DNA of 60,324 bases, the filler included, from Sluysia triapertura (Eukaryota), in assembly GCA_046118255.1 (NCBI GenBank). It is 5 parts of 5 records of this genome, joined end to end, with 100 filler letters (N's around TTAATTAATTAA, not from the genome) between each part and the next. Parts side by side here need not be neighbours in the genome. Positions count along the whole stretch, not along the records: positions 49,285 to 60,324 come from JBJNIA010189753.1; 4 more parts are not named here. One strand, 5' to 3'. This document shows positions 5,577 to 60,324 of this stretch, piece after piece. Position 1 is the stretch's first letter, and each line of letters opens with the position of its first letter. The notes under the pieces are model-generated. The model did not search any database. It had not been told where the DNA came from and saw only the letters and a program-made list of their open reading frames with translations. Both the position numbers and the translations under genes were made by a program.

Positions 5577-6067
5577 TTTGAATCGATTCGATTGAATTTA
5601 TTTTTATAACTTCTGTCCAAGTAATACACAATTCTTGATCTCGACTAAAATCTTTCAAATTAATTCTAATTCTTACTTTGAATGACTTACTTTTTATACT
5701 ACTTATTTCCTTTAGATGTTTATTAATTTTTTCAAAATAATATAAATAAATATTGGTAATTTTAAAAATAATATAAATAATTGACTTCCTTTAAAATATT
5801 GGCTTCCTTTAACTAATTTAATTATTAATCATAAAATAAATAATAAACTTCCTTTCCTTTAATCATAATTATAAATAATTTTATAGTTTTAGATTTTTAT
5901 AATTAAACTTTTATTATTTACAATAAATACATTTTATAATTAAACTAAAAAATTTTTTAGAAAACTTTTATTATTTACAGAAATATTTTTTAATTTTTAT
6001 TATTTTACACATTATTTACATATACAAATTATTTACATAAAAATATTTTTAAACTTTTATTTAAAAT

Positions 6068-8379: not shown

Positions 8380-9583
8380 TCAGTAGAAGAAATGGAACAT
8401 TGTAGCTATGTTCTTGAACTTTGGAAGATGGAATTTCAGCTTTTGTGTTCCATAACACGCTACTGATGACTCATTTGATGCAGTTAGATATAGATTGAGT
8501 TGATGTAATTTCTTACACAGCGTATTAGGAATTACTGATACCGCTGCACCTGTGTCAATAAGAAACTCAAGTCGCCGGTATTGAAAATTTTGGAATGTAA
8601 GCAGCATAGTGAACATGGAAAGGGATGCCATTTCGATCGGTTTAGCCGCTGTAACCGATGGCACCGTTAGTTTTTTGTTGGTGCTTTGAAAGTCGCAACC
8701 TTCTATGCACTTGCGAGCCATATTCTTATAATATGCATGGTAGGGAACTTACAACCTAACAAACAGCACTTTGACTTATTTTGGAACCGCTGGTGATAAT
8801 AGCAGATCCCGTTAAATGATCTCTCACGACTTGGAGATCTTGATGATCTGGATGATGATGATGATGATATGTTGTTTCTCGCCTTGTTGGTATGTGAGCT
8901 GTTGATGTTGGTAGCCAGTGTTGCGATGACTTTTCAAAGGGCTTCAGTCTGTGTGATGATAGAATCTAGACGTTTGCTCAAGATTTCATATGAATGGCTA
9001 CTTGACTCTATCACCGAGATTGATTTGTTGCTATTCTCGAATGTGAACTTCGGATGTGCCACAATTATCCTATCTGCGAGGTCTGCCAACTTTTCTCTAT
9101 TCTATCTGAGGTGGTGAGGCATTAAAAAATCGTTTTAGCGCGTATTGATCTTCCTCAGTTACGCATCTTAAATGTTCCAAATCATTTTTAGTTTTCTTCA
9201 GAAATTCTGACGGCTTCAGTGATCCAAGTGACTGGTTTTTGAAATATTCATGGAACAACTGATTCACATTACGACTGAAATGTTTCATGAGGACCTCTTT
9301 CAATTCATCGAAAGGGTTTATTGCCCTCAAACATGTTGAAATTTTCGGGCTTATAACCACCACTAGATCTATAGGTAAAGACGATATTGCCCTGGTGAAT
9401 TTCAAAGTTGAGTTCGTCACATTTTGTGAGTTAAGGTCCGCTTCTAGTAGCAGCTGCCATATGTTTGGGGTCCCATTGCTATCTACTAAGAAATTCACTG
9501 GTGTAACCGGTGTCGCAGCATTTAATTCGGTTGTAGGTGGTGTTGTACTTGTATTTGTACTTACACTTGGTGGATCGTCGTAG
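8380..9583 (-). mobile_element. Ty3/gypsy retrotransposon gag-protease, disrupted and 3'-truncated
   Basis: Gag motifs PNIWQLLLEADL..VTNSTLKFTRAISSLP, LGSLKPSEFL and LADLADRI. Cys/His knuckles CYYHQRFQNKSKCCLLGC and YHAYYKNMARKCIEGC. Aspartic protease FLIDTGAAVSVIP and LTASNESSVACYG. Confidence 0.9.
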
Positions 9584-10337
9584 TTGTGCTGTATCTTTAT
9601 TATAGCTCCATTGGTGATCCCGCGGTGTTTGAAACTGCGATTGGTCCTAAGTGGTTTAGTATTGTAGAGGAACCAGGCTTGCCTGTGATGCGTTATGCGA
9701 TGTAAAATACCTGTGTTCCTATCCAGGGTCCACGTTATTAGTGATATTTAAGCCGCAAGATACACATTTTATATTTATTTGAACCAAATTATAGTTTTAA
9801 TGATAATTCATCGGGTTTTTTATTTTTTATTATTAAAATTATTGAAATTTTTAACTAGAATTAAATAAATTAAAGATACATTAAACTTTGTAATAACAAA
9901 TGAAATAGTTAATGAAATATTCGTAAAATCTATTTTTTATAAAGCTATATTTGTAAATATTTTTTCAGCTACAAATCATCACAAAGTAATAAATGAAAAT
10001 TTTAAAAAGGTATGAATGGCTAATGAAGATATTTTAATTTGGATGATTTTGAATTTTGTAAAATTTGATCTTTTTTGATTTAATCAATAGACTTACGATA
10101 ATAATTGCTATAAATATATTATGATTATAAACCATTATGATTGTGCCTGAATTTTTGGTACCACTGAATATGAATGATTAATCTAAAAATACAAATTATA
10201 TAAAATAATGTAAAAATAAATATTAATTAAATGTTTGGCTAAAAATAAAAATCAATAAATTTGTAAGTATAAATAAAACAAGAAATTCTTACTAAATCCA
10301 TATTGAATCAGAATTAACGTCGAGTTATTAGTGTAAT

Positions 10338-14536: not shown

Positions 14537-14636
14537 NNNNNNNNNNNNNNNNNNNNNNNNNNNNNNNNNNNNNNNNNNNNTTAATTAATTAANNNNNNNN
14601 NNNNNNNNNNNNNNNNNNNNNNNNNNNNNNNNNNNN
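14537..14636. other. Artificial contig spacer
   Basis: 44 N + TTAATTAATTAA + 44 N; the 12-mer has stops in all six frames. Confidence 0.97.
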
Positions 14637-14685: not shown

Positions 14686-16293
14686 TAAAGTAGGAAAAAT
14701 ACCAAAAACTGTTAATAACAGCAATAATGATAAGAATAAAATGTTTAATGGTATTTAATATTGAATATTGAATTTTAGTGATTAATTTAAATTTATGATT
14801 TTTGTCTAGGGAAAGTTGATGTATGCGTAAAAATAATAGTGTCAATGTGCAAAGGCGAAAATGAAACAGTGAATTATTGAATGTGAATTAATAATTTTAT
14901 TATTATTGTGAAGTCGTGAATTATGATTGTGAATCACCTGAATTTCCTTCATTTGTAATTGATATTTGGTTGTTATATGGATAAAAATTAGTACTGGTAA
15001 AGCAAATGTTAATTAAAGAATCCACTTATTAATTTAAAAATTCAGTTCTAAATTTAAAATTACATGTAATTTACATGAAATTGTAGTATCATTTGCTAGT
15101 GGATTAATAAGTCGTGAATCTTGAAAAATTTATGATAGGAGTTGATCTAGGATTATCTAGTTTACCTAATGTAAATTTCAGTATGAAATTTGATTTTTGC
15201 AAAGATCAAAAAAGAAAAAGGCGATGAAAATATGGCACGATCCAAAAAACCAGTTGGTTATGCAAAAGTAGAAGAGTTAAAAAAAGCAATGAAAAAGAGA
15301 TGGAAACCACAAAGTGGTTGAGAAATCATTTGAGAAAACAATTAACAAACCAAGGAGACGAAGATTTCTGGAACATAAATATAAACATGAGGACCAAATG
15401 GATTATCACAAGCTGATTTAATATAAATGATATCATATTCAAAAATTAAAATGGCTACATATTTATTTCTAATTGTACTAATGTTTTCTCATGTTTGCAC
15501 GAATAGTGGTAAAAAGTGGTAAATTTATGATCCAAGCAGTACCGACATTAATTAAATACATTAATTATTTTAAAATTTCCAAATTGATTTAGATAAAGTA
15601 TAAAAAAAGTACTAGTAATCATTATTCAATATTTAGTAAGTAAAAACCAGCTTTAGTCGAACATCATAACTTAAAAGAGATAGCTTTTAAGTATTTTACA
15701 AAAAAGTAATTGTAATGAACCCAAGATTAAAGCACCATAGTTGTAAACAAAATCGTAAGCAAGCCTCAACACAAAATAACATATTCCTTATTAAATAAGA
15801 TCTTAAACAAACTTCGAAATACTAAAACACAAACATAATTACTACAAATTCATGCACATCAAAATCTCACAGTTCTAGTCTAAACTTAGTGTTGTTATTT
15901 GATATTATTGTAAAAATGTGTTGTATTCATTGTTATTTTAATTACTGTTATTGTCTTTTATTACCATCTTATTATCTTTTTATTATCATCAGTTCTAGTT
16001 TTCTCCCGTACGCATGTACAATAATTTTATGCTGAGGTATCAGAATCTTCTTCTTCATTCAGTTTTTGATGCTTACTTGTGCAAAACGTACCTTATTTCA
16101 CAGTAATTTTAACATTGAATTCATTTTTATGTCTTCTTTATTATTGCTATATTACCATTATATTATCAATTATATTAACGATTAACTATAGTTGATGTTA
16201 TATTTTAAACTTTTTTAATAGTGAATTTTGATATTTAATACGAATTCCTAGGTGTTGACGTTAAGTTAAGATTTAACTCTACTTCCTATTTAT

Positions 16294-17753: not shown

Positions 17754-20321
17754 CATCCAACCAGTATACTACTAATACAATTTTCATTAAAATCTACGAT
17801 ATGAATAGTTGTCTCTAAACTTTTTAATGACACTAATATCAATTTTTGATACAAAGTGCTTATATTAAACCAAGAAAAACGGGACTGTGGAATTGTGTCT
17901 TATTTTATACATGTCTGAAATTGATCCTAAATTTTTATTGCTACAGTTATTACAAATATGTCGTCTTTAATAATTTATTCTTGTATTGTTACTTTATTAA
18001 ATTGATTTTTAAATAAAACGGCTTTAGCAGGTTCTAAAGTCAATTATAAAACTTAGATTAATTTTTACAAAATGATCAGAAGTAATGGTAGGAATAAAAA
18101 TAAAAGGCTAAAAGATTCAAGAACACAAATTTTCACAGTAATAAAATTTATTGATGTATAATAAATCCAATGAGCGTAATTTGAAACAAAAAAATAAACC
18201 CAAATATAAAGTTGGTGACTAATTAAGAATATCAAAAATATAAACAATTCCATTCATAAGAATATTTTTAATAATATTTGGAGTGATGAGGTCTTTCACA
18301 TTCATGTAGTCTATAAAAGACAAAATCCTGTAATATTTGCATTAAAGATAATGATGGTGAGAAAGTACAACGAATGTTTTATCATTAAGATTCATAATTT
18401 ATCTTATTGAACTCATTTTAGAAACTAAAGGTAAAGGAAAAAGAAAAAGTTACTTATTAAATGAGTTCGATATAAGAAACCCGAATGATATAAATGTCAG
18501 CATAATTTATTTATTATTACGAAATAAAAGTTTTCATTTGGTAATTGTCCAATAATAGTAACATGTTCATTGTAGATGCTTCTTTAGTCGAATATATGTA
18601 TGTTACTTTAAGAAACAATTTGACCAATTTGAAACTTCATAAAATGAATATGAAAATTTTGGCTATAATACTAAATTTGATGTAACAATAGTAGAAAATA
18701 TTAAAAATCATAGTCATGATAATGAAGATGGTATTACTGGATACGATTCGGATAAAATTCAAAGTAAAATGGATTGAAAAACCGAAAAGCTGGACAATGT
18801 TGTTCATTATTACTGGATTTTTCAATCAGCTAAAAATTTTCGATTCATATTGCAAATGTTTACTTGGAATTACAAAGAAATAAATCTAGCTTTCACCTTG
18901 TATCTGATTCAGGTACCAGTAAATATAAAGTTGTTTTGACTGATGCTAAAATGTAAGTCGAGTTAAAGTTGAGCTGTAGTGGTTAGAGTGTTCTTAAAAT
19001 TTCACTCTCGCAAATTTATAAATTGTTTTGTGGTAAAATTAAGTTTAACATTTATATGTTTCGATCTGAGATGATACAGTATGATGTTTTTATGATAATA
19101 ATATATTGTCTCAATGATTTTGCATAAGTTTGCCAAGGAGGATTGGTCAAATGGTCTTGATGCTATCTTAAACATTATCAGCCTAGTGTAATTGTATGTA
19201 TCATAACGATGAGGAGAATTAAACTTAACTGATTTTGTTTTATTCATAATAATTACTAGACATTTTAATTTCCAGTTGTCATAATTTAATTATTCAAAAA
19301 ATAATATGATACATCTTATGGATGTTATGGCAATTTAAATTAATTTGACACCTTATTTCTTTCTGAATTAATTCAAACGGGCTTAGTGTGGTGGTACAGC
19401 CTCTTAGATTACATGCACTACACTTACTTTAACCAGAAACCACACAAACTTCATTACAAAACAAAGTCCATTCGTAATCTTTACACTATCACACTTTTCA
19501 TCATTAATAAAACATAAACTCTAACATTTTTTAATATTATGTTTATTGATATATAAGTAACACTTGTCGTCTTGTCATCATCACGTCAACACCACTCTTT
19601 TAGTGTATTTTTTGTACCGCGTGATATTAATTATTAGCAAAACGACTTTCTAATCACTTTAGTTTATTTTATACTTTTATGAATTCCTTTTTGTTGCAAC
19701 AATTTGGGCACTAACATTACTGTTCATAATGTAACGATGTACATCATTTCAAATTGGGAAAATATTCAACAAAAAAATTCAGACTAGTAATAATTATTAA
19801 TCCTAGAAGAAACAAAAGGACTCATAAGCCTGGTAAGTTATCTCAGATCAATAAGAAAGAGAAGGATGCAACAAAATCAATAAAAAAGAGTAAATCATTT
19901 AAAATACCGGAAACTAAAAAGATGAAAGATAGATTGGTAAACGAAAATTCAAAGAAAGTAAGGGAGTTAAAGAAAAGCAAAAACGAAATCATTAATAAAA
20001 TTTTTGAATATGATGAACATGATTATGAATTTCATAAGTGTAGTTTCGTATTTTAATTTTTGTTTTATACTCGGTATGAATATATTTCTAAAAGTGCTGT
20101 ATGTGATCAGAAGATGTTCATAATCTAACAACAACTTAATAACACGAAATCAACTGGAATAATATCATGGCAGAAAAAGCACAGTCGTTCAGTAGCAAGA
20201 ACATATCCATCTAATATCATTGAATGAATTTGTAAAAAGCTTTTAACGGATTTTACTTATTTTCATGTTTTATTTTAGCAAAGTTTATCAATTTTAATGT
20301 AGTGTCTTGCAAATAACTTGT

Positions 20322-20747
20322 ATGACTTCTGAACTAACGTCTGGCAATGAATTACATTCTGATGCCTATCCTATGAAATTAGTTGATGATATTGTATATG
20401 AAATTAAAGACAAACGGATAACCACAGTGAGTCGAATGAGTGACGATATAATTGGAGATAACAAGTCGTCGAAATGTTTGAAGACAGTACTGAATCTGTG
20501 ATGAACACGTAAATTGAAGGAAATCACGTTTACTCTCTTTACTGAGAAGCAATTATCCTGAAAGAGCTAAAAAACCTAACAATTTAGCTCCTGCTAATGT
20601 TAGTACTATTTTAAAATTTTTAATAATTGTCAATTTTATACTGGGAAATTAACAAATGCCGATACAGTGGTCATGTTGCCAAATTATCAAGAAGATCGTG
20701 TTACTCCTTATTTTATTATTTTTAGGCACAGTCTTGAGCATATTAAA
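20322..20747 (+). pseudogene. TPT1: Translationally controlled tumour protein (TCTP) pseudogene, apparently intronless
   Basis: SGNELHSDAYPMKLVDDIVYEI...DDIIGDNKS, KLKEITFT, YPERAK and QFYTG...NYQEDRVTPYFIIFRHSLE, with several frameshifts and deletions. Confidence 0.9.
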
Positions 20748-20773
20748 GACATTAGTATCGAATGCATTACGAC

Positions 20774-20998
20774 ATATTATGTTTATATACATATTAAAGT
20801 TGAAGACTATCATATTAGAAATAAACGTTTCATTGTAGCTTTATTTATGGCCAATGTGCCCAAATACGTCTTTACATTTAAAAACCATTATTTTGAATTA
20901 TATTATGTTTATATACATATTAAAGACTATTATATTAGAAATAAATGTTTCATTGTAGCTTTATGTACGACCACTGTGCCCCAGTATGTTCTTACACT
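20774..20998. repeat. Imperfect tandem duplication (about 126-bp period)
   Basis: ATATTATGTTTATATACATATTAAAG...TTTCATTGTAGCTTTAT...TGTGCCC at 20774 and again at 20900. Confidence 0.9.
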
Positions 20999-22819
20999 GT
21001 TATTCTAAAACTGTTATTTTAGATTATTGCACAATTGTTTGGATAATTTGACTGGAGTAATGGTTGTTGGAGATTATGAAATACATGAATTTGAACTCGA
21101 CAAAATTCCAGTTCTGGTAAACCCGAAGTGTCGGTTTACACAACTTTATCTTTGTAAGAATTTTAAATTAGATGTTGTTTGCCTATTACCATGATCGGTG
21201 TTTTTAATAATATAATTAAATTGTGTTATTTTTGTTTAATTCGCCCTCTGAGGCACATAGTTATTGTTATTAAGTGCCTTAGCATAAAATTGTTAATAAA
21301 AATTTTAAATATAATCAAATTGGTAAATGTAACACTAAATTTTATAAATTTTATAAGACTTTTTTGAATTTCATCCAATATGTTCTAATAAATAAAAATA
21401 ATAAACATTTCTTAACACTTAGTTTACTCACTAAAATAAAAACAATTAAAAAATCGTTTATAAAGGACTAAGATTGTATGTTTATCTAACACTATTTCAA
21501 CCTGGTACACCTATATATATACCAGGTACGTATATTTAGATCTAGGATGAGCTTAGGAAAATTATAGCACTAAATAAATTTAACAATTATTGTACGAAGT
21601 CAAAACATGAATTGAGAAAAAATGGTTCAACTTATAAAATGTGTTAAGATCACATTAATAGTGTTAAGATCGCATATATTGTAACATCCTCGGTAATGTA
21701 TTGAAGATGACTAATTAGAAATAGAATTAAAATTATTATTAGTTTAAATAACGGCCATCTTTAATTGTTGCATAATATAAATTAATTGCATTAGATCAAT
21801 ATCTAATAAGGAGCTTCCGTTAAAATTTCATAACAAATAATTGCAAAAAATATTTTCACTGTTCTTTAATATTTTCAAAAAGATTTAAATAATTTGTTTA
21901 AGGATTATTTATATTAAGGAATATCGTTTATTCCATGATATCATTCCCAAATATTAAACGTCATGAGATTCCAACAAAATATCTTATAATTTTTCCTAAC
22001 TTATCTTTCACAGATTACTATTCTTCTTCAATTTCGGTATTTCGTGCGCTTAACACTTTATGAACGGGTAGCCTAACAGTCCTAACTATAGTGCTTAGCA
22101 GTTACCAGTATAACTTGACCCGCTTTAAAAAATACTTTTAAAATGAAATACTCACTCACTCTTAAGTGACAGTCCAGGTAATAATAACCGTCCTGCTCCT
22201 ATGTGTTAATTCTTCGTTTCGAATGTGATATTTTCAATCTTTTCTTTCAAGCTTTTCTAACATTACTTTCAACACATCAAATAACTCAATTAATTCTTTC
22301 TTTGTAACATTAAGGTTTAGAATGTTTTTAGTGTTAATGTTAATAGTTAGGTGATTGAATTTGTTTGTTAAAATTATATGGTTCTTGAATGTTTAAAATT
22401 AAAATCAGGTAATGAGATTTGTTGAAAAGCTGAATATTTTGAAAAGATTGAATTTTTTCTATGTTTGATAATGAGTTTAATGGAATGGTGAGTGTTTTTT
22501 GTTGATAGATTATTGTGAAGTTTGCATAATAAAATTTTTAATTGTGAGTTGGTTCACCAGAGAACCCTCAGTCTTAATCAATTAGGTTTACCGAAATCAA
22601 ATGCAATTTAACCTATACTAAAATTACGACTTAGATTATACGTACATAGTCTACGTGGCATGGACTTGTTTGAAATATTTATTGTTTATGCACTGTTTCA
22701 TTAAGAGATACATTCCCGCAAGTAAGGGTAGATAAGCAAAATATATTTATTATTAATATTTTGAGATATGTGCCCATGAAGAAAATAAATTTTTTGACTC
22801 AACTTTTGATTTTTGCACC

Positions 22820-26348: not shown

Positions 26349-26420
26349 CACATTATGAGCGGGTATTCTTAAGTGACAGTACATAAAACGGGTACTAATA
26401 CCCGCCCCGCTCATAATGTG
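26349..26420. mobile_element. 72-bp piggyBac-type MITE
   Basis: Perfect 15-bp TIRs CACATTATGAGCGGG / CCCGCTCATAATGTG, preceded by TTAA (26345-26348). The contig ends at the right TIR. Confidence 0.75.
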
Positions 26421-26520
26421 NNNNNNNNNNNNNNNNNNNNNNNNNNNNNNNNNNNNNNNNNNNNTTAATTAATTAANNNNNNNNNNNNNNNNNNNNNNNN
26501 NNNNNNNNNNNNNNNNNNNN
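26421..26520. other. Artificial contig spacer
   Basis: 44 N + TTAATTAATTAA + 44 N. Confidence 0.97.
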
Positions 26521-26690
26521 TATATTTCGTACTATTTGCTTCGCATCTAGTGTCTTGCCACCTACAATTAATTTTGCTTCATTCATTTTGGCATTGTTGC
26601 TATTTTTATTACTGAAGAGTATAAATTCTGACTTTTCTTCATTGATTTTCAAGTATTTATTTCCAAACCATTTTATCAATTAATAATTGA
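26521..26690 (-). mobile_element. LINE (L2/CR1 group) reverse transcriptase fragment
   Basis: IKWFGNKYLKINEEKSEFILFS...LIVGGKTLDAKQIVRNI fits the WxxxNxLKLNxxKTExIxF...VRNLG region. Confidence 0.8.
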
Positions 26691-33600: not shown

Positions 33601-34710
33601 TTATGTTTATTTATAAAATAAATTTGTTTTGTAAATAAAATGTTATTTACAATATTTGCGGACAAAATGTGTATTACCAATGAAATTTAAATTGGCAATT
33701 GTTGCAACCAATTGGTTTACAGTTTGAGTCATCATTATAATAATAATCTGCAAATAACAGTAACCTAGAAACCTAACAATAGTAATATTGTGAAATAAAG
33801 TTAACAATTGTGGTACATGTCGAAAAATGATAACGACGGAAATTATGTTAATATAAATTGTGATAGTATTATGTATAGTAGCAATGCACGGATAAGTATT
33901 GGGTAAAAATTATGATAATAATAATAATAATTTAATGTAAATTGCGGATAAACATTACAGTAGACAGAATGAAATTAGGCATTAAGACAAAATTAGACAG
34001 AAAATTGAAATTAATATAAATTACATGCAAATAAACTAGCTGTAATTTGGTACTAGCAAAAAACCACTATATAAGGAAATACTTTTTCATTACGTATAAC
34101 AACTAATAATTAAACAAATGGATACATAAGGTAACTAGATAACTTGCATTATTTTACAGTGCAACACATTTAACTTCAAAAAATAAGTACATTTTATATT
34201 TTGCTATCATTTTATTCTCATTTGTTTAATATACTTTGGTTATATTTGTGTGTTTTTAATTTTTGAGACTTAGAAGAATTTAAATTTCGATTAAGCATGT
34301 CAATCCCTTGCATGAACAACGGGTAGAACTCCGATTTTCAGATAAAAACTATTAATTTTGAAAGGTATTGAACTAAATCGAAATAATCTTAGATAAATTC
34401 GAAGAATAACTAAAATTTATTAATTATAAAATTGTTTTAAAGTTAATAATTAAAATTTTATTCGTTAATAAATACTTTTTATATTACTATATAAAGTATC
34501 AAGAGAATTAAAAATAAATTGAATTAAAAGTAAAAGTTCTACTACAAATAATTTGAAAAGAAATAAGAGTCATTACACCTGTGTTTTAGAAGTTTAAATT
34601 AAGAATAGATAAATAGTTTAAGGTTTTTATAAAACATAAATTTATTGTTCATTCATTGATAACAATGATTTATTGTACTCAATTTCATATAGAAAAAATT
34701 ACAATTAATA

Positions 34711-35080
34711 ATTAATCAAGCAGCAAGACTAATTCTCCAAGATGGAAGATCTCATGTAACGCCTTACCATAAGGAATTACATTGGTTACCAATAAAAGCA
34801 ATAATAGAATTCAAAATCATGACAATAATTTACAAAAAAACTTGGAAACCAAAATGAATATTTCATTGAGGCATGATAATCTATAGAGAATCCACAGTGA
34901 TAATAAGTATAAGTTGTATACAATTTATGTTTCAAAAATATACAACCAGAGAATGTCAAATTAGTGGAAGATTATGAAATATTTAAGTAAAAGGCAAAGT
35001 TCTTTCTGTTTCAAAAAAATAGTAAATGATTTATTTTAAGCGCTTACACAGTACATTTGATCGCAATATAAATTAATATA
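34711..35080 (+). mobile_element. L2-like LINE 3' end
   Basis: INQAARLIL...HVTPYHKELHWLPIKAIIEFKI..IYK, then FK*KAKFFLF, then an AAGCGCTTACACAGT...TATAAAT tail typical of L2 3' ends. Confidence 0.85.
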
Positions 35081-37830: not shown

Positions 37831-37930
37831 NNNNNNNNNNNNNNNNNNNNNNNNNNNNNNNNNNNNNNNNNNNNTTAATTAATTAANNNNNNNNNNNNNN
37901 NNNNNNNNNNNNNNNNNNNNNNNNNNNNNN
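37831..37930. other. Artificial contig spacer
   Basis: 44 N + TTAATTAATTAA + 44 N. Confidence 0.97.
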
Positions 37931-41800: not shown

Positions 41801-42199
41801 ATGTATAATCCAAGTCAAAATTATTATATCGATCGAAACTACAACTATGTATTTATGCCTGTTGTGCCACAAAGTATACCTTCAAATACACTCTTGGTAC
41901 AACCTATTCATCAGCCATTATCGTGGATAAATAATCCCCAAATTATCAATGTCTCAGCAGAAACTTCAGAAAGTACGAAAAAACATCGATCGAGGGAAAA
42001 TTTTCGAAAAGAGCAAGTAGATAAATTAATGGAATTATATAATCAAAAGAAACATCCATCCCCAGAAGAACGTGAAAATATAGCGAATGAAATCAATGTA
42101 ACATATGAAAGAGTCTCTCAGTGGTTTAAAAATAAGCGTGCCAGAGATAAAAAGAATACTAATGATAGCGGTTCCAGTGCTAACACTAACGTAAATTAA
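41801..42199 (+). CDS. Single-exon homeobox transcription factor, divergent PRD-like K50 homeodomain, 132 aa
   Basis: HRSRENFRKEQVDKLMELYNQKKHPSPEERENIANEINVTYERVSQWFKNKRARDKK has R5, F8, L16, W48, F49, K50, N51 and R53. Intact ATG to TAA; AATAAA near 42325. Confidence 0.93.
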   Translation: MYNPSQNYYIDRNYNYVFMPVVPQSIPSNTLLVQPIHQPLSWINNPQIINVSAETSESTKKHRSRENFRKEQVDKLMELYNQKKHPSPEERENIANEINVTYERVSQWFKNKRARDKKNTNDSGSSANTNVN

Positions 42200-47216: not shown

Positions 47217-47697
47217 ATGTGTATAGTGAAAAAAGTTATTAAAGTTACATTTTTGATGCTATCTTTAATATATATGGTAAGTTATTTCATTGCTTAATAC
47301 ATATTTAGACTGTAGGTTGTGGATTAGTTTATATTGGTATCACTTTAAAAACGTCAGATTTTGAGATATTAAAAGCACTACGAAACTTTAATACATTATT
47401 AATTGAACCTATATGTGTAACATTAATTGTTTTTGGTTGCGCGTGTATCCTAGCCAGTATTCTTGGTCAAATTGGCTATTGTTTGGACAGTAGAGTTTTA
47501 TTTATTATGGTTAGTTATTATTTGCTGATAACAAAAATTCATTATTATATAAATAAATTTATTGAAATATAGAATTGTTATCATTTCACATTTAGAGTGC
47601 AGTATTAAAAGCACTAATTGTTATCGGAATAATTGGTTTAGGGGTATTTATCAAGAAAAAGAGTAAAAAAATCCAAGATGAATTTCAGTGGATGTAA
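47217..47697 (+). CDS. Tetraspanin-like protein (TM1-TM3 only), exons 47217-47276, 47309-47509, 47596-47697
   Basis: Phase-0 GT-AG introns of 32 and 86 nt. IKVTFLMLSLIYM/TVGCGLVYIG...LIVFGCACILASILGQIGYCLDSRVLFIM fits tetraspanin TM1-TM2-loop-TM3. No CCG loop or TM4 seen. Confidence 0.75.
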
Positions 47698-49184: not shown

Positions 49185-49284
49185 NNNNNNNNNNNNNNNN
49201 NNNNNNNNNNNNNNNNNNNNNNNNNNNNTTAATTAATTAANNNNNNNNNNNNNNNNNNNNNNNNNNNNNNNNNNNNNNNNNNNN
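49185..49284. other. Artificial contig spacer
   Basis: 44 N + TTAATTAATTAA + 44 N. Confidence 0.97.
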
Positions 49285-49320
49285 CATCTTAGTACATTAA
49301 TTTATTTTATTACCTTAATA

Positions 49321-49392
49321 CAGTGGTGTCAAAGTGGCGGCCCGCGGAGGCAAATCATGCAGCCCGTAAAGCAAAAAGGTTTGACACCACTG
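49321..49392. mobile_element. 72-bp hAT (Charlie/Buster-type) MITE
   Basis: Perfect 13-bp TIRs CAGTGGTGTCAAA / TTTGACACCACTG with a GCGGCCCGCGG subterminal motif. The 8-bp flanks match at only 4 of 8 positions. Confidence 0.85.
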
Positions 49393-50391
49393 ATCTAAAA
49401 TATATTTTGGCTATCTAATTTTTAATGTCTATATTTGTTTTGCACTAATTTTTTATTTTTAACTCTGCATTTAATTGGCCCATTTTCAAATTATCAAACT
49501 TTTACACCAATTACATTTCTCAACATCTTTCTGATTATTTGACAACGTTCGCAGTAACTATTGGTTACGAAATTACCTAATTTTACAAAAATTATGTAAC
49601 CAATAGATATCATTCAACTTAGTTAAAATTATTACTATTACTATTATCATTATCATTATTATTATTAGTAGTATTAGTATTAGTATTATTATTATTATAA
49701 TTATTACCATTGTGTCTTCATTAAATTATTTTTCGCATAAATTACATATAAATTAAAGTCTAGAGGTGAAGTGTAGAGTATAGAATGTGTAAAATTTATG
49801 TTAATAAAATACTTTTGTTGCCTATAAGTTTTAGTTTAATTTAATCGTTGGCTTTATGACTAATAATTCTTTTAAATTAGGTTACTCAAACGTATTTCCT
49901 TATAAAACATTACGTTTGATTTATAATTATTTTTCAACTCTTTTTACTCCTACTAATCCTCTTTAAATTAGTTAAAGTTTATTCTTTATAGTACTCCTAT
50001 TGGCTTAGTTCAAAAATATTATTTAAGTCTTGATCAAATAATTTCTAGTTCACTTATTCTCTTATTTACTTAGTATTAAATTCTTTTTGATAATTCTAAT
50101 ATGGAAGTTTAGTTCAATACTCGTCTCTGTTCTTAAAGGTGGAAGTGCCAGTTAAAGTTTTAAAATTATTGATTTTAAGTACTTAAAATCTCACTTATCG
50201 ATTGTAGTGGCCCGGCCCACACCTATCTACATATCATTTACCATTTCTATTATTATTAATACTGTTGTTATTATTATCATCATCATTATTGCTATTGTTA
50301 TTATTATCATTATTACTTTTGTTATTATTATTATCATTGTTACTAATATTCCTAAATATAAAATAAATTAAAATTTGAACAACGTTGATTA

Positions 50392-50624
50392 AACTGGTTG
50401 CTGCCATCACCAGTGCTGACAGTCTGTGTCATATTTACATTAGGCTGTCAGCCTTGATGATGGTCGGCCATCAGTTGTTAATTTTCATCAAAATAAATAA
50501 CTTACCAAATATCACCCAATCAGAGCACAGCTCATTTGAAAATACTAAATACTAATACCAACACTCTGATTGGGTAGATAAAAATAATTCTAATAAAATT
50601 AACGTGTCTAGAAAATATAGACAC
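50392..50624 (+). promoter_or_regulatory. Structured leader A (three inverted repeats) upstream of the 494-aa ORF
   Basis: Arms at 50404-50425/50442-50463, 50514-50525/50564-50575 (perfect 12 bp, inverted CCAAT boxes) and 50604-50610/50618-50624. Confidence 0.75.
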
Positions 50625-50737
50625 AAAACAAATTGCAGACAATAAAAATACCATCTATAACAATAAATTCTTGTTTTTATTACTGAAAATTACTGTCAAC
50701 ATATTTTTCAACGAAATTTTGTCTTTTTGCTTATTAC

Positions 50738-52222
50738 ATGATGAAAATTTGTATGGAACAAAGGGATAAAGTATTCTCTTCGATATTAAGAGTTATCAAC
50801 AGTTTTACTATCATTTTAAAAAGCAACTATCTTGAAGTGTACAAATTGGATTTATCAAAACAGTTATCTGAAGAATTAAACGATAGATGGTTATTCTTTA
50901 TCGAGATTATTAATGATGATAAAACAGATGATCTATATCCAAATTTAATTGAACCAAATCTCAAGATTAATGTAAACATTTGGAATTTTTTTGAACCAAA
51001 ATGTAAATTGTTAAAATCACTGATGTCATGCAAGTGGGCCCACTTTCCAAAGTCTATATGGTGTAGTGATTACAATTATGATGAATACGTTATTATTCGT
51101 TTTCGTGTTAGACATGACATATATTGTCATGGAGGAAATGAGTTTATTCTCGGGTTATTTAGTTTAGATATAAATTTGATAGTAAAAATAATTTCAATCT
51201 ATCTGCTATTTAAAGTAATGCAACAGCACCATGAATTCGGTGGTTTGGAGAGTAGATCAGATTTAGTTGAAGTTCGAATATTGCGAGACAAGCTGCTTAA
51301 GAATGATAATTTAATATTTGATATAATGAGAAATACACCTACAGACCTTTACAAGTTAATCGAAATAAAATATGACATTCACCACATCATATTAATTAAT
51401 GACTATGTGAAACTGTATCTATTACAAAGCCGCTTCAGTATAACTTTTGCAACTATAGACGAAATGGCATGTAATTGTGAGCTAATTTGGCTAAGTACTG
51501 CTCGACTTATTTTGCTGTTACAATCTATCATTATGCTGGGAGTTAATCATGGTTTCTTGGTGTTGATCAAAGAAATAAATACTTCAGCGAACAATTTTTA
51601 CGAAATTTTATATGACAATGATGTTAGTTTTGATTTTATTCCCTCTTTTAATTATCTTTTAGTCAACTCGAACAATCTTAGGATCTCGAAGTGTCGGCGA
51701 ACCAAGGATGATGGTAAACATGACTCAGGTGACCTGTCTATAGATATTGACAAAAATTTTAAAAATAAAATATATGTATATAATTGTAATCTCATAATAT
51801 TAATTCTTAATAATAAATTTTTAGTGTTATTTATTCAATTATCTACGAAAATTTGTTTCATAGACTCGAATTTCATATATACAATAAAATTTCACACAAT
51901 ACTAAGATTTAAGACTTATTGTCACGTTAGTATCTCTGAGAATTACAATGAACCTTTAAAGATACAAATAAATATTACAATCAATAAGATTAATAAAATA
52001 ATAAATACACCCTTCTGTCAATTATTAAATTATAGTCCAATTGATCATATAAAAGACTCCTCATGCACATTGATAGACTTCCAAGTATTGCTTAATCTCG
52101 TCTTTAGTAATGGAATTTATAAGCCGCCCTCAAATTCAATTTATCTTTTTAAAATAAACATTAAAATTAAAAATGTTGTTGTAAAACTAAATTCTACAAA
52201 TAAATACACCATAAGTTTATAA
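50738..52222 (+). CDS. Intronless 494-aa protein of unknown function
   Basis: By far the longest ORF in the window; 494 stop-free codons are very unlikely by chance in DNA this AT-rich. No motif recognised. Confidence 0.8.
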   Translation: MMKICMEQRDKVFSSILRVINSFTIILKSNYLEVYKLDLSKQLSEELNDRWLFFIEIINDDKTDDLYPNLIEPNLKINVNIWNFFEPKCKLLKSLMSCKWAHFPKSIWCSDYNYDEYVIIRFRVRHDIYCHGGNEFILGLFSLDINLIVKIISIYLLFKVMQQHHEFGGLESRSDLVEVRILRDKLLKNDNLIFDIMRNTPTDLYKLIEIKYDIHHIILINDYVKLYLLQSRFSITFATIDEMACNCELIWLSTARLILLLQSIIMLGVNHGFLVLIKEINTSANNFYEILYDNDVSFDFIPSFNYLLVNSNNLRISKCRRTKDDGKHDSGDLSIDIDKNFKNKIYVYNCNLIILILNNKFLVLFIQLSTKICFIDSNFIYTIKFHTILRFKTYCHVSISENYNEPLKIQINITINKINKIINTPFCQLLNYSPIDHIKDSSCTLIDFQVLLNLVFSNGIYKPPSNSIYLFKINIKIKNVVVKLNSTNKYTISL

Positions 52223-52837
52223 AAACATAACACCTAATTCAATCGCATTCCATAATATCGAATTACATTAACCGATTAATCATAAACAATATTCCACATT
52301 TATAAGATTTCAACAACATATACTCCTCAAACAATTCGTCTAATAGTTCCAAATTTTCACCTCACACTATATTTTGATAATTAATACCGAATAATCTATA
52401 ACATTCACTCAATAACTATTCTTTCAAACCAAATCACAGCCACCAAAAATAATATTAAAGTTACAAATACATTAACACCATTCAACAATAGTAACAAATA
52501 CCCGAAACATAGAAAACAGTTACGTTACAACCTTGAATCAGCTATACTTATTCAAACCCACTTCAGCTACACATAACAATTATCAACACTCTACAATAAT
52601 ATTGTAAATATGCTAAGATTTATTTAGTAATTGTCTTTTAAATCAAATAAACTATAACCTTCTAACAAGCCTTTTAAATCCATTACAGTTAATGCATAAA
52701 TCGTACTTTCAATTATAAAGCATAAATAAACCTCAAGAATTTACTCCAATATCTTTCATTTCACTTACAATATAAATCATTTCTTTTTGCTTAAAAAATT
52801 AATTTAAAACAGCTTTAAAGAATTCATTTCCTTGTGA

Positions 52838-52891
52838 TGAAGCAACGGCGATAACTGAAGCATAATATACCACGTTACCGTCGTTCCTTCA
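52838..52891. other. GC-richer hairpin downstream of the 494-aa ORF
   Basis: TGAAGCAACGGCGATAAC (52838-52855) pairs with GTTACCGTCGTTCCTTCA (52874-52891): 15 of 18 Watson-Crick plus one G-T. Confidence 0.6.
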
Positions 52892-53109
52892 CATAATACC
52901 AATCTCTTCTATTTACCTTTTTCTATGTTATATGTTAGAAGGACTAAAGAATTCGATAAAAAGTTCGTGTAAATTTTAAAAGAGGGATTTATGCGAATTG
53001 TTTTCGTATGATAATAATAATAATAACAATATTATTGTTGTTATTATTATTGTTGCTATCAATCGTTAAACTAATTTTGCAAACCTAAATTAAATTATAC
53101 TTGTTGTCG

Positions 53110-53352
53110 CCATCATCAATGTTGACATACTGTTCACTATTCTATTGATATGTCAATATTGATCATGGTAGGTCGTCGAAAAATCAGTTGTTGTACAATT
53201 TTTGGATACATCCAATCACGACTGTAGTATGCAAATAATAATTTTTGAAGTCGTGATTGGATAACCAATCGTAAGCTGCTCAATACAATTTTGTTAACAA
53301 AATTTTACACAAAATTAATAAAACCAGAAATTCTGGCACAATAAAAGTTACC
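53110..53352 (+). promoter_or_regulatory. Structured leader B, paralogous to leader A
   Basis: Arms at 53110-53129/53149-53168 and 53210-53223/53249-53262 (perfect 14 bp), ATGCAAAT in the loop, and CCAGAAATTCTGG at 53324-53336. Confidence 0.75.
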
Positions 53353-53454
53353 AAAAAATTTCTTATCATAGATAACCGAATAAAGTCAAAAATTTTTTTA
53401 GTAGTCTCGACAAAAATCACATCAATTTTTCTCAATCAATAACAAATATTGGTT

Positions 53455-55090
53455 ATGTAATCGATAAAGAATGCAATATTAATCGTATCAAATGACTCCG
53501 ACGAAAATTTCCAAGGTAAAAGGCGAGAAACCGAACAAGTTTCAAATGTTTACACCATATCATCCTTTTGTAATAATAAGAAAACTAACATTCAAATAAC
53601 TACTCTTTTCGATGTTTTCGGATATAATCTATATAATTTTCGCAGTACTTTACAGAATCAGAATAGCTATAATGAAAATTCACGTAGCGTAGACGAAGAT
53701 AGTTTTTATTGTGTGACACGTAGAATGAATGTTCATAAAGAAGATAAAACTGGAAATTATAGTGAAACACCGGTAATGAATAATAAGGAAAGCAATAGAT
53801 TTTATCGATTTAGTTAATAGTCGAAATCTAACAAAATTAACTAGTCCGATTGCCACATCTATGATATTATTTTCAAAACATTCTTTACTTCTTATCAAAC
53901 TACAAAAAAAATTAACGATTGAACTAGTTCAACAAAAAGCTGATCAAATGTCCCAAATCATGAACGAACAATTTTTCAGTGAAAGTATACTCAAAGTCGA
54001 ATTAGTTAACCATCAAGACACAAATTTAGACAGAAGTAAACAGATCATATACAATCGACATGACGTGTTAAGAAACTATAAAATTAAACTATTTCATCAC
54101 TGTCTGTCAAGGCGACCAAAGGCTAGCACCATGATACAAAGAAATGTAATCAATTTATCTCCAGATAGAGCGATGCCTTATTTTAGATTAGTATTAAAAA
54201 TTAACGAAGCAGATAATGTCATGATCTAACTCTATAAGCTCACTATAAACAAAATTTGGTATACAATCAATCATAATTTAGAAACGTGTTTCAAATCATC
54301 AAAAAGGATAGACATGCTAATCTGTCTTATCATATTACAAATTAATGGGATCAACTTGATACTACAACGTCAACAATCTACGATGTCATCAACAGTCAAT
54401 CAAGAGTACAACTTAATCATGAAGATAATAAATCTATGCGAATTTAAGGATGAGACTTTTTGCAATAAGTTGTCGGTTGTAAGTCCTTATTACATATTTT
54501 TATCGATTTATATTTTAGATAATGAATTTAACGAATGGATTACTGGAAGTCAACAAGAAGTAGTAATGCAAAAAAAATCAAGGAAGAGAAAACTTATCTA
54601 TAAAATTTCAAAATATTTTTTCTTGTAATAAATTTGTTGTGTTAAAAAATTTTATATTTATTTTAAATAACTTAAACTTATTGTCTCGAAAAGAAAGAAT
54701 TTTATGTTAATACTTAGTATGTCCGAAAAGAACGAGTTCGAAACATAAGTCGTTAACATTTAATGATTTCAAGGAGGAAACTAAATTTAGACATAAATTC
54801 ATGCATAACATTCATAATGATGTTTGACCCTGTGATCCTTCACAAACTTTTATCAAATTATATTATTATCATTATTAAATTAACTGTAACACAACTTGAG
54901 ATTCTGAAACCAAGCATTAAGTCTTTATTTAATTTTAATTTATTAAAAACGTCATTAATTAAGAATTCAGAAATCTCAACATAAAACAACACCCACTCCA
55001 AAATACCGGCCAACAAACTTACATTTTTAATAAGTAACAAATCAAGTAACGAACTTTATGAACAAACAATACAAAATTGGAAAACGAATG
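53455..55090 (+). pseudogene. Decayed long ORF downstream of leader B
   Basis: ATG-TAA at 53455, then 118 open codons (53461-53814), then same-strand fragments 53861-54229, 54314-54628 and 54763-54984. Confidence 0.55.
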
Positions 55091-55400
55091 AGATTCTTTT
55101 TAATTAGTTTTACCATTTTCGTTTACAGTTACTACAGTTATTAATGTCTTAATGTGCCTTACGAAACTAAACATAGAAAATTATTGTGAAATAAGAATAA
55201 CGCAAAATTCCATTTATAAAATTCTCAGGTGAAATAATACTAAAAATACCTGGAAAGTTAAATACATAAGTACATAATAAATACATACAATTTTTAGATA
55301 GGATCAACATTTCGAATGGCCTGTAATTGGTTCCTATTTATAGGTTATCCATTTCAATATTGGTCCAATAAGTAGATTAAACAAATGATTCCTTTTATAA

Positions 55401-55885
55401 TTAACACGCTGAATAATTTGTAAAAACAGCGATTGACGTTTTTCGATTCATTTCATTATCTTCTTCAATACAAACCATCAAATTAAAAATAATTTTAGAG
55501 TAGCAAACGAAACGGCAATGATAATTAACATACATCAGATACTTCGAAGAATTTTTCAAAAAATACGTCTTTATTTCTTCTTTATACAAATTCCAAAATT
55601 TTAGTTGTACATTCAGGACCTTCAGATATTTCCCCATCATAAAGCAATTCAAGATTTTCAATCTGTTTTCACAGATTTTTTCTTTTAAGATGACTTTCGA
55701 TAAGTTGGAACTCATAATTCAAAGCGTTTTCCATTCGTTCTCTGTGATATGTTCATTTAAATTTTCCAAAATGCTAACAGTACGCGGAATTAAATTTTCG
55801 AATACTATCAAACGTCCAAATTCTACATCTTCTCTCATTTCGGTAATCGCTTGCATAATTTGACTTCCGCATACACTATTTGTTC
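55401..55885 (-). pseudogene. Frameshifted unknown ORF
   Basis: MQAITEMREDVEFGRLIVFENLIPRTVSILENLNEH... continuing in shifted frames. No family recognised. Confidence 0.25.
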
Positions 55886-56709
55886 ATATTTGTAAGTTAA
55901 ATAAAGATCTCTTGTGATATTTTAACTGAAAAGTATCATTTAAGATTAACAGTGAAAATAAATCAGAAAATAAAATTACACGAAATAACGCGAAAATCAC
56001 CAGGCTAAGAATGACAATGTCCGAAAACAGTAGAATTAATTATTATAATTAGTATAATTAGTTATTATAACTTTAATATAGAGTAAATTTTATTATGAAT
56101 TTTTATAATTTGTAATTTTATGATTTGTAATGAATGAATGGTATAATGATATATGAATGATAATAAAATTTACTGTTTGTAATTTGGATGTAGTATATTA
56201 TAAGGCTTGTAGTTTATATTGAGTGGAATAAGATGGCGATGTTAAGTATAACTTTAGGTATGAATTTATGTGTGAGAGGAGTAACAAAACTATCGTGTGT
56301 GGTTGGGACACTGTAGCAATGACACTAAACCCAAGTTATTTGATAAATTTGATTTAATTTAAAAAGGTATGGTTCAAATAAAATATGTAAACTTACTGAT
56401 TGGTTATTTATTACTTATTTATAGTTTATCTTTTATCTGGTAATTTAATTTATTTTTACTAAAAATATCTACCTTTGAAAATTATTTATTCTTTATTACG
56501 AAAATTAAATCGATCAAATTAAACTATTAATTATTAAATAAATTATTTAATTATTATCAAATTAAATCATTAGAACGATGTCATCCGAAAATCAAATGAT
56601 ATAATCATATAGAAAATGATTAAACAAGAAATTAATATAACAATTATTAATGAAATTAACAATATATTTTATTTAAATTTAAACTTTTACATGTTGTATT
56701 CATAATGAT

Positions 56710-56876
56710 TCAAAATCCATTCAATAGTAAATTCGATAAGATAACTCAGTTCAAATTCGTTCAATAACAAATTCCATACAATTCACATTCAAATATAATA
56801 TGATAAACCAGTTCAAAATCCGTTCAATAATAAATTCAATATAGTAAACTAATCGATACATGATAATCCATTCTAA
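56710..56876 (+). repeat. Degenerate tandem repeat TCAAAATCC(A/G)TTCAATA
   Basis: Three to four imperfect units; some translate as QNPFNxKF. Confidence 0.55.
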
Positions 56877-57699
56877 AGTATAATAAAATGGTTTCATCGT
56901 TTAAAAAATTTTGTATGTTTACATATTATCGACAACACTGTTTTATATAGTGTATTCTACCAATATTATATTATGGCCAATTAATTTTTCAATTACATTC
57001 TATAATAACTATTCTGCAGTTAAATTTAATTATTTTCTACAGTTAAATAATTTAAGTCTTAAAATATTCTCGTTTAACTTTGTATTAACTTTACATTCAA
57101 ACAATCAAAGTTGTTATTTTATAAACATTAAATTCTTCAACCTGAAAAACCTGATCAAACTTGCGCAGTCATTCACCATGATAAAACGTGAAGATAATCT
57201 AATATTCAGTTCGTATCTGAACTATATATAACTTAGTAACGTCTCGATAAATTCGAATAAGATTCGACTATCACAATTCGAAATACAATTTGCATATAAT
57301 TTTTATTTATTTATGATTTAACAATAAATAGTTCGTCGAGTTCATAAAAGTGACATTTATCAATTAACAGTAGTTGAAAAATACACAATTGTTAATTTTA
57401 TCTTGATAATTCGTAAAAGCAAACATAATTGTAATATAAAATATTATTTCAAGTTCAAACATCATTAAAATTCAATAGCATCGTTAAATGATAATTTAAC
57501 ATGAATAAAAAGTGTTACATTCACTTTCTAAAATATAGAGTGCATGATAATTTATACTATTTATCATCTATTTAAATCCGGATTGATTACCGAAGTAAAT
57601 CTTTACAACAATAAAATAGCAGGCGAGCATAAAGGGACAGTCTATATCGATTAATTCCACTTGTGAGTTTGAATTTAGATATCAAATGTAGCTTCATTA

Positions 57700-57910
57700 C
57701 TTCCTTTATTTTGGAAATTTGATAAATCCTATGACAGTAAGCAGACATTCTCTTCTTCAGTACAACCAGCCAAATATGCTTCCATTTTTGAAATTTTGAA
57801 TCTTATATCATTTGATATTCTAATGTCATCAATAGTTGTAGTTACAATGCGATCTTTATCAACAATATAAACAATGAGTTTACTACTTTCAAAATCATTT
57901 ATCGATTTTA
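57700..57910 (-). pseudogene. Possible Tudor-domain remnant
   Basis: KLIVYIVDKDRIVTTTIDDIRISNDIRFKISKMEAYLAGC loosely follows the extended-Tudor VxFVDYG...LR...F...A pattern, then stops. Confidence 0.25.
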
Positions 57911-58769
57911 AAAAAATTATATCATTATAAAAAATGATTTATTTTTTGATAATTCTTATTAATTTTTTATTAATTAAAATAATGAAAATAATTAGTAATT
58001 AGTAATTGTGGAAAATCATTAATTAGTACTGATAAAATTGTTAAAATAAATATAATTTTATTGTAGGTGTTAGCGCTAATAAAAGTGATGATAATGATAG
58101 TTGAAGAATGATAAAATGAAAGAATAACAAAGATATAAAAAGAATTTAGAAAAATGTAAATATCGGAATGCTAAAACCAAATTTCTAAAAAATAAAAGCA
58201 TGTCAGAATTAACGTCTAACAGAAATAATAATAATCAATTAAGAAGTTTACTACCTAGATACTTATTTCTTCATTTGTTTGACAAATTTTCAGTTAATTA
58301 AAAGTCAAATAGGAAGGGATAATTTTACTGTTCAAAAGATATTACAAAGCTGAAATATCTAAGATGTTTGTTTTGGTTATTTAAGTTTTTCTGTATTTAA
58401 TACCGACTTAAAATCTGCGTAATTTCACATTGACATTCTTTGGACATTTTAAAATATCCGTAAAATTATACTAAAATTATAATTTAGATTAATTTAAAGA
58501 ATAAATTTAAATTATAAACTTTGTGCAACAATCAAATAATTATCTCTGATCACTTATTTATTAACCTGATTAATTGTTATGCAGTATTCCATAAAGAAAT
58601 TATTTAATTTTGTTAAATTCCCAAACGATTAAAATAAACGCGTAAACGAGAATAAATTTTATAGCTTTATTTTCATAGAAGCTATCTATTTTGTAAAGTT
58701 TTTTCACGTCGGTTTAAGTACGACAATAAAATCTTATTTTTCGTCCTAGTTTAATAAAGGACTGAAATA

Positions 58770-59262
58770 CCGGGTGGTCGCTAGAAAAGCGTAACAGCTG
58801 AGATCATGAATAAAATGCATACTTACTCATTTCTATTTTCATTTGTTTTAGGTTCTATTTGATATCCATATCATGGAAGGAAACCGGAAACAGCTTTCAG
58901 ACTTTCAAAGGCAAGAGATTATTCGTTTCAAAAGTGAAAATCCGACTTGGGTTCTGACAAAATGTCTAACTGTTCACCAACTTTTTTTTCAACGATTACA
59001 AGGCATCAGTTTAATAATGTTGCAACTTTGAAATAAGAAGGTCCTAAAGCAGCTGGAACAGGCCTAAAGAAACTACAGTGAAAGATTTGGTTGTTTCACC
59101 TTGCGACACGGTGCAATGAATAGACGTCATTTCAGTCAACGAGAAATCGCTTGACATCTCAATATATCGAAAAAATCACTGTTTGAAATTCTCAAAGAAA
59201 GTGAACCGAAATGTAATCCCCTTAGTGAGTGACATCAGGAAATGCGAAAAAACTAGCCGAAG
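58770..59262 (+). mobile_element. Tc1/mariner-superfamily element: left TIR and disrupted transposase N-terminus
   Basis: TA|CCGGGTGG terminus. MEGNRKQLSDFQRQEIIRFKSENPTW (ATG 58873), RPKETT, FSQREIA*HLNISKKSLFEILKE and PLSE*HQEMR. Confidence 0.75.
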
Positions 59263-59958
59263 CTAGAAAAGCAACACTAACGAGATAACAAAACTCAATC
59301 AGAACCTATATTACTTTGATAAGGCCGTAAGATTAGTGCTTCTTAAGTATTCGACCTTTTAAATTATTAAAAACAATTGTAACTGTAGGTTTTCATTGGG
59401 AAACCACATCATAATAGTCGACTTTACATCATAATATGACTTTACAACTATTGCATATATTCATTTTTCTTTTATTCTGATTATTTTATAATTATTCTTC
59501 TGTAATTATTATTACTCTTAATATATTATTTATATTAGATCTGGTGGCATGTATGATATAAAACTCAAAAAGGTTTCACAAGTTTAAAGATGTACAATCA
59601 TGTGCAAGAAGAGGTTATTGAAATGTAAGGTTACGAGGTATTTGATTAAAGGGAAAGTTTTAAGAAATGATAAATCAATATAAACTTGCATGTAAAATTA
59701 AAACGTAAAAAAATTCAGATAATTTATCATAATTAATTAAAACTAAATTTATTGCTTGTTTCACGACAAAATATATCATCGTATTTATTTTCATAGAATA
59801 CTTTTAGTACTGTTTGATTAAGAGGAGGTTAAACAGAAGTTATAGTACACCAATACCTCGATTTGCATTTTTTCGAAATTGCGCCGCTGCTTAATTAGTT
59901 ATAATTTTCACTATGCGTCGTTAGATTTTCGAGATTGCGTTTTTTTGGGTTCGACTCT

Positions 59959-60255
59959 TTAATATTGTGGGATTTTAATGTTTATTATTTTTTTCATGTT
60001 GTTGTTAAAATCAGGATTAAATTTTAATTTGTATTTATCTTTACAAATTATATGATTAAGTTTTATTAAAATCTTTTGATTTAAAATTTGTACATTTAAT
60101 CCAATTATTGCATTTTCTTTATAGAAGAAAAGCAAAGACAAAATTTTATTTGAGAAATTTTGATTTTGATACTTCGCTCTTATGTATGATTCTTCTTGTT
60201 TCACCTTCCAATAAAAAATAATAATAAAAATAATAGATAACACTAAGGATATCAA
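59959..60255 (-). CDS. Possible exon of a membrane protein
   Basis: Hydrophobic stretch VLSIIFIIIFYW after a candidate 29-nt GT-AG intron. The upstream frame contains stops. Confidence 0.2.
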   Translation of the reverse strand: MISLVLSIIFIIIFYWKVKQEESYIRAKYQNQNFSNKILSLLFFYKENAIIGLNVQILNQKILIKLNHIICKDKYKLKFNPDFNNNMKKIINIKIPQY

Positions 60256-60324
60256 AGTTAAAATTATTTACCTTGATGTTGTGGTCCATTAGAATATTAT
60301 CAGACGAAGTATTAGAGATAACTA

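Follow-up and report, generated by a model that had tools for sequence, protein, structure and literature searches.

An orphan 494-codon frame behind a two-hairpin leader in Sluysia triapertura, possibly the gene of a Crypton-like repeated element

A long, uninterrupted frame in the genome of Sluysia triapertura (assembly GCA_046118255.1) raises the question of what kind of gene it is, and by what it is carried. The original prediction, made from the sequence alone, left three options side by side: cargo of a hairpin-led element, an endogenous viral gene, or a lineage-specific gene. The window, by which we mean the whole analysed stretch of 60,324 nucleotides, consists of five contigs (14536, 11784, 11310, 11254 and 11040 nt, the last four in falling size order) joined by four identical 100-nt N/TTAATTAATTAA/N linkers at 14537-14636, 26421-26520, 37831-37930 and 49185-49284, so that genes on the two sides of a linker are not neighbours. 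The frame lies on the last contig, and the features around it are collected in Table 1.

Table 1. Features of the frame, its leader and the adjoining unit (positions in the window)
Feature	Position	Strand	Evidence
Artificial 100-nt linker; the contig of the frame is 49285-60324	49185..49284		four identical linkers
Degenerate (ATT)n microsatellite, directly left of unit 1	50236..50350		sequence
Hairpin A (unit 1), arms of 22 nt with 82% complementarity; very high repetition	50404..50463		z -4.2, 0/200 shuffles; 60 contigs at 50426 (X1)
Hairpin B of unit 1, 12-bp perfect arms with CCAATC	50514..50575		base pairing of the arms
494-codon open frame	50738..52222	+	ORF scan, shuffles; homology searches without relative
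Codons 1-340, coding-like part	50738..51757	+	D+E 45 vs 22 expected
Codons 341-494, stop-free, without codon-position signature	51758..52222	+	GC1/2/3 = 0.22/0.21/0.21; G-poor
Very highly repeated, G-poor segment following the stop; either a repeat of its own or the right end of unit 1	52240..52900		11-81 contigs at each site listed
(AAT)n/(ATT)n microsatellite between units	53000..53060		sequence
Hairpin A (unit 2), homologue of the unit 1 hairpin A	53110..53168		nhmmer E=1.6e-5
Hairpin B of unit 2, 14-bp perfect arms with CCAATC	53210..53262		z -3.8
Unit 2 long frame, ~390 codons, one frame change near 53780-53817, one stop at 54227	53461..54628	+	weak Crypton tyrosine-recombinase signal

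The frame is genuine and open far beyond chance. It comprises 494 codons from its ATG, or 511 from stop to stop, and is the sole ATG frame of at least 150 aa in the whole window; the longest frame in 300 base shuffles reached 130 aa, and given how often stop triplets occur in the window, 494 codons free of stops would arise by chance with a probability of about 1.7e-19. The uninterrupted 1485-nt frame of the original prediction is therefore borne out. Scanning for hidden introns returned two AT-rich GT-AG candidates, one of which is 39 nt long and in frame at 51786; neither gained further support. The amino-acid make-up of the protein is unusual for a gene and near-random (A 1%, G 2%), and the codon-use log-ratio of the whole frame is -0.110, against -0.109 in shuffled stop-free DNA. 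The codon-use model behind this comparison is weak, with a training set of 753 codons, of which two of the eight pieces scored equally low or lower when left out.

As far as sequence similarity goes, the 494-aa protein is an orphan in all collections searched. Pfam matched no family (best E 0.074), PHROGs was blank at E<0.1, NCBIfam and PDB sequences were also blank, and no RT, DDE, HUH, helicase or capsid family was matched in any of these four collections, in keeping with the earlier statement that no such motif can be recognised. A phmmer search against 1.84 billion cluster representatives gave 0 matches at E<=0.001, and a 5.8-billion-protein search was blank for the ORF at near lengths and for aa 340-494 at longer lengths. 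The exact look-up of the sequence, the self-search within the window, and the searches of metagenome contigs, viral contigs (IMG/VR) and phage records yielded no relative of the ORF; motif scans of viral contigs returned nothing, and the only Rfam match was at chance level and elsewhere in the window. The ESM Atlas was blank for both the whole ORF and aa 1-345, with a recognition value of 1706, below the 2300 typical of known families. No clear match to a conserved family, of the kind that would remove the novelty, thus came from the protein, family, PDB and contig searches.

The frame is composed of two sections of different character. Codons 1-340 hold an excess of Asp and Glu, and the observed count (Table 1) was reached by 0 of 2000 shuffles, while codons 341-494 carry no coding sign by codon-position or composition measures and are part of a G-poor stretch that runs past the stop to ~52900. 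Each section is separately open, with a probability of no stop of 1.2e-13 for codons 1-340 and of 6.9e-7 for codons 341-494. The last 154 codons would probably derive from a second, G-poor coding source fused in frame. A charged linker between two domains had been proposed at this place. The charged stretch KCRRTKDDGKHDSGD is present (aa 318-332 of the ORF) and the composition of the ORF shifts near aa 340, so that the supposed linker sits near a shift in DNA composition; a protein domain boundary there is unconfirmed, because both AlphaFold2 folds, predicted without an alignment, are uninformative (pLDDT 29.5 for the whole ORF and 31.8 for aa 40-330).

The frame had also been set against neighbouring genes described as split by micro-introns or broken. 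Such genes do occur in the window, as a tetraspanin gene has one confirmed 32-nt GT-AG intron (47277-47308), and a TCTP copy at 20300-21030 is split into two pieces that do not lie in the same frame, with a ~125-nt tandem duplication behind it. Both are located, however, on contigs other than that of the ORF, and the argument from an intron-rich neighbourhood fails for this reason; neighbourhood arguments are unsafe in windows built from concatenated contigs. Nor does the frame differ from the rest by being intact, since a homeobox gene of 132 aa at 41801-42199 (+), also on another contig, is likewise intact and intronless; its exact sequence is absent from the protein collection. Contigs other than that of the ORF further hold a sugar transporter gene and a broken Gypsy-like gag/protease remnant at 8380-9750 (-), with matches to DUF7041 (E=1.4e-7) and an aspartyl protease (E=4e-4). 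Judged by these genes, the host would be an animal of high AT content whose introns are small. Within the contig of the ORF (49285-60324), none of the Pfam families attained its curated cut-off in the stretches scanned; one scan of stop-free stretches took 138 of the 222 in the window, chosen by composition.

The frame is preceded by two hairpins, and the same leader recurs in front of a second long frame to the right; the two copies with the DNA that follows them are here called units 1 and 2, the second of which occupies 53060-54628. In both units the order is an ATT-type microsatellite, a long hairpin (hairpin A) and a shorter palindrome with CCAATC arms (hairpin B), and the distance from the first hairpin to the start of the long frame is 334 nt in unit 1 and 351 nt in unit 2. 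When the window was searched with the long hairpin using nhmmer, the unit 2 copy (E=1.6e-5) was the only other match. Judged by comparison of the paired positions, the two-hairpin leader is common to both units with its base pairing kept: between the two sequences compared, 4 of 12 pairs of hairpin B are changed on both sides and none is broken, and 2 of 20 pairs of hairpin A are changed on both sides and 6 are broken. Hairpin B of unit 1 was not the MFE fold in the fold test, because its right arm was cut off in the stretch folded. Beyond the leader, the two units have no DNA similarity and their frames no protein similarity. At the presumed ends of unit 1, a scan of 50330-53010 found neither TIR nor LTR, and the unit has no match to a DDE, integrase or RT family. 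Further hairpins or short inverted-repeat elements are found at 49557-49605 and 26349-26420, one of them directly before an ATT microsatellite.

Repeat status was assessed in the contigs of one public run (X1), possibly the source sample, which carries 0.51 of the words of 50000-53500; contigs were aligned at 80% likeness. No RNA data set was listed as containing the stretch, which speaks neither for nor against expression. Repetition in this run is far heavier in both flanks than in the body: the ORF has a summed depth of 291-986, the left flank (leader) 10,891 and the right flank 15,154-15,550, and long contigs with 0-3 differences elsewhere on the ORF's contig have a depth of 8-19. These values are not copy numbers, and several plain intergenic bins also reach 200-600; a linkage of the commoner ends to the coding body is presumed. 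The G-poor segment at 52240-52900, which adjoins the frame on the right, has no match in Pfam. By alignment, diverged relatives of the frame exist in the run. Among the pieces listed (8 of ~15,390), a 269-nt contig is 88% identical to 50755-51021, covering codons 6-95, with 31 differences and 0 gaps over 267 nt. Among the variant sites listed (40 of 858), three fall in the ORF, namely 50779, 51923 and 51951, with a different base in 11, 4 and 3 contigs, respectively; one of these changes is silent, two alter a residue and none touches a stop, and three sites are too few for dN/dS. On the same contig, a 72-nt element with 13-bp terminal inverted repeats at 49321-49392, which we take to resemble a hAT-type MITE, is extremely abundant in X1, and a moderately repeated segment at 58760-59250 shows many deletion joints in this run; by eye, the latter is presumably like a decayed Tc1/mariner N-terminus.

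The arrangement of unit 1 is reminiscent of animal Cryptons (CryptonA, CryptonI and CryptonV), which are DNA transposons with a tyrosine recombinase. These elements, like unit 1, contain one long frame, and of similar size, 14 of the 20 fetched frames being 421-579 aa from stop to stop, and are described as free of terminal repeats (PMC3212892); a long hairpin upstream of the gene occurs on both sides of the comparison, and ends that seem commoner than the body, judged for unit 1 from the contigs of one run, may be another common trait. Non-autonomous derivatives are reported to outnumber the animal elements (PMC3212892), some CryptonV families are reported to insert into microsatellites, the setting in which unit 1 also lies (PMC8869645), and terminal repeats of DUF3504 elements are described as variable (PMC13465315). 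The likeness does not extend to the protein. According to PMC3212892, the Crypton recombinase has an R-H-R-Y catalytic tetrad, and its similarity to the DUF3504 sequence reaches E<=8e-12. The 494-aa ORF, in contrast, has no DUF3504 match in Pfam, lacks the H-x-x-R core of the tetrad throughout its length, and stays at shuffle level in every test against two Crypton profiles (20 and 71 sequences; local, frameshift-aware and glocal). As recombinase similarity and the H-x-x-R core were both looked for and neither was found, the ORF is not filed as a Crypton recombinase: unit 1 is arranged like a Crypton, and nothing beyond arrangement is claimed. A stretch near 50970-51090 that resembles the catalytic part, but lies off frame, reached z 3.0 in just 1 of 66 cells and was rejected after a repeat gave 27 of 600 shuffles.

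The references for these tests came from 121 loci fetched by a short motif, since certain motifs had suggested Crypton tyrosine recombinases. The first profile retained 20 of 24 long frames after four bacterial-integrase look-alikes were dropped, and the second 71 of 79, with eight dropped likewise. Of 80 fetched motif loci, 26 have a long hairpin, which in 13 cases stands 1.18-1.43 kb ahead of the catalytic motif; such hairpins are not Crypton-specific, being present in 8 of 44 control loci as well. Domesticated DUF3504 genes (KCTD1, ZMYM2-4, QRICH1, KIAA1958 and WOC) offer a further comparison, as they are described as Crypton-derived with catalytic residues absent, and the DUF3504 domain of KCTD1 as confined to one exon (PMC3212892). 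Their conservation as genes of the host sets them apart from the ORF, which is multi-copy and matches nothing.

Unit 2 carries a weak Crypton signal behind the leader that it has in common with unit 1. Its main frame is blank in Pfam and in the protein search, and the standard local Crypton-profile tests are null. The glocal test returned z=4.2 (1 of 1000 shuffles) for a segment that immediately precedes the catalytic motif, this being one of 24 cells and the segment having first been picked by eye, and the segment ranked first of 846 window chunks. With two disjoint half-profiles the same segment reached z=3.1 and 4.8, against -0.1 for the reversed sequence and at most 2.4 in 22 LINE-profile windows. 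The N-terminal and middle segments gave nothing with the Crypton profile, and the catalytic part gave z=2.4 in one of three frames. On profile similarity, Crypton descent of unit 2 is probable, not proven. Over 54070-54329, an X1 contig differs from unit 2 by 8 letters and 8 gap positions.

Among the three options of the original prediction, carriage by a hairpin-led element fits best, as the frame lies in repeated DNA and 334 nt behind a leader common to unit 2. We give about an even chance to the reading that the frame is the internal gene of a repeated, Crypton-like, hairpin-led element, probably moved by the recombinase of another element. The frame would be the single long gene of a moderately repeated unit of ~2.6 kb (~50350-52990) that opens with two palindromes, is bordered by an ATT microsatellite on either side and shows no terminal repeats. 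A single microsatellite could have received both units as Crypton-like elements, their abundant ends could be non-autonomous deletion derivatives, and the palindromes are putative recombinase binding sites. Unit 1 itself is most likely unable to move, because its protein has neither H-x-x-R nor a recombinase signal, and would be moved in trans by the tyrosine recombinase of a sister element. The frame might then encode a DNA-binding remnant, catalytically inactive and too diverged to be detected, or a passenger that was captured. Several points count against a Crypton-like element: the ORF is at shuffle level in every Crypton test, the units are alike only in their leader, and the hairpins may be a small independent repeat that merely stands in front of a host gene; in addition, the repeat evidence comes from a single run that is possibly the source sample, and the unit boundaries are presumed.

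A fast-evolving, intronless, lineage-specific host gene family, beside which the hairpins and the G-poor segment landed as unrelated repeats, is a less likely source, at roughly one chance in a handful. The frame is intact even with a relative that is 12% different and has no gaps over 267 nt, its first 340 codons have the D/E excess, its protein has no mobile-element motif, and intronless host genes occur in this genome, as exemplified by the homeobox gene. Nevertheless, codon use that equals stop-free random DNA under the 753-codon training set speaks against such a family, as does the occurrence of the same two-hairpin leader, at a similar distance, before an unrelated, broken, Crypton-like frame. 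Slightly less probable again is a functionless relic, in which an old element gene (codons 1-340) was joined, with the frame kept, to a G-poor piece of coding sequence from another repeat and no stop has yet been acquired. Such a relic would suit the near-random amino-acid composition, the tail without codon-position signal, the composition that continues unchanged past the stop, the broken state of neighbouring unit 2, and the fact that two of the three visible differences, among the variant sites listed, are residue-changing. On the other hand, with a relative 12% different, neutral decay would be expected to leave several stops and indels in 494 codons, and both sections are separately open beyond chance.

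A further reading, improbable and with a slim chance in our estimate, is that the product of the frame is a mobilising or end-binding protein of a new kind, without sequence relationship to tyrosine recombinases or DDE enzymes, which would replace the recombinase in a Crypton-type chassis and act on the same palindromic leader. If it were true, unit 1 would be the founding member of an unclassified family of DNA transposons that target microsatellites and have non-autonomous ends in very large numbers. Selection on the frame across copies would indicate a new transposon protein or else a Crypton-like element in which the gene is a passenger or a replacement, and the portions of the literature retrieved in a non-exhaustive search, Repbase Reports excluded, contained no case of either kind. 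In the ordinary case, the locus would add one more unclassified repeat-borne frame, from an AT-rich animal genome of a little-sampled group, and would chiefly be of use in annotating repeats; where sampling is so poor, it is no great surprise that an unclassified repeat contains an orphan frame.

The two weakest explanations are both very unlikely. An endogenous viral gene would account for an intronless, AT-rich orphan, but it gains no support from PHROGs (E<0.1), IMG/VR contigs, phage records or the 1.84 billion representatives, libraries that are thin for small-invertebrate viruses, and no viral gene was recognised in the scanned stretches of the contig. An assembly or processing artefact, a mosaic or altered sequence carried by no individual, would agree with the fraction of 0.51 of words in X1, with the window's base being in no contig at the three listed ORF sites and with no long clean piece over the ORF among the pieces listed, but no stop codon is affected by any of the three differences, rare variants are lost from contigs, which also break within repeats, and unit 2 likewise has long open stretches.

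Other mobile-element identities were also considered. Non-autonomous Helitrons and Helentrons with captured cargo combine hairpins, an adjacent microsatellite, the absence of a TIR and unrelated internal frames, as in unit 1. In unit 1, by contrast, there is no Rep or helicase match in Pfam, and the hairpins lie 5' of the frame. A suggestion, made by eye, of an integrase on the minus strand at 52640-52990 received no Pfam support. Codons 341-494 and the downstream DNA have in common with the endonuclease of CR1/L2-type LINEs a G-poor sense strand and one YKPP stretch, and this YKPP in the ORF tail presumably resembles the YRPP motif of that endonuclease. As a candidate, the CR1/L2 endonuclease was rejected: its E=0.0037 depends on the single YKPP motif, which also served to fetch the LINE references, and all controlled tests were null. 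Under the controlled profile tests, the ORF has no APE endonuclease or RT similarity. A strongly G-poor region with an A/C-rich plus strand and several long stop-free stretches is also present at 6000-8150, where no Pfam, LINE or Crypton signal was obtained; kinship with the G-poor segment 51760-53000 was considered and dropped, as no similarity was found. The LINE profile, built from 22 CR1/L2-type ORF2 sequences (23 found in 44 loci, one dropped), did find scraps of CR1/L2-type ORF2 in the window, at 34693-34854 (+) with E 3e-4 and at ~26570-26680 (-) with E 2e-3. About half of the 44 LINE motif loci, which lie in bacterial MAGs, encode an intact-looking CR1/L2-type ORF2, pointing to eukaryotic contigs binned into GTDB genomes.
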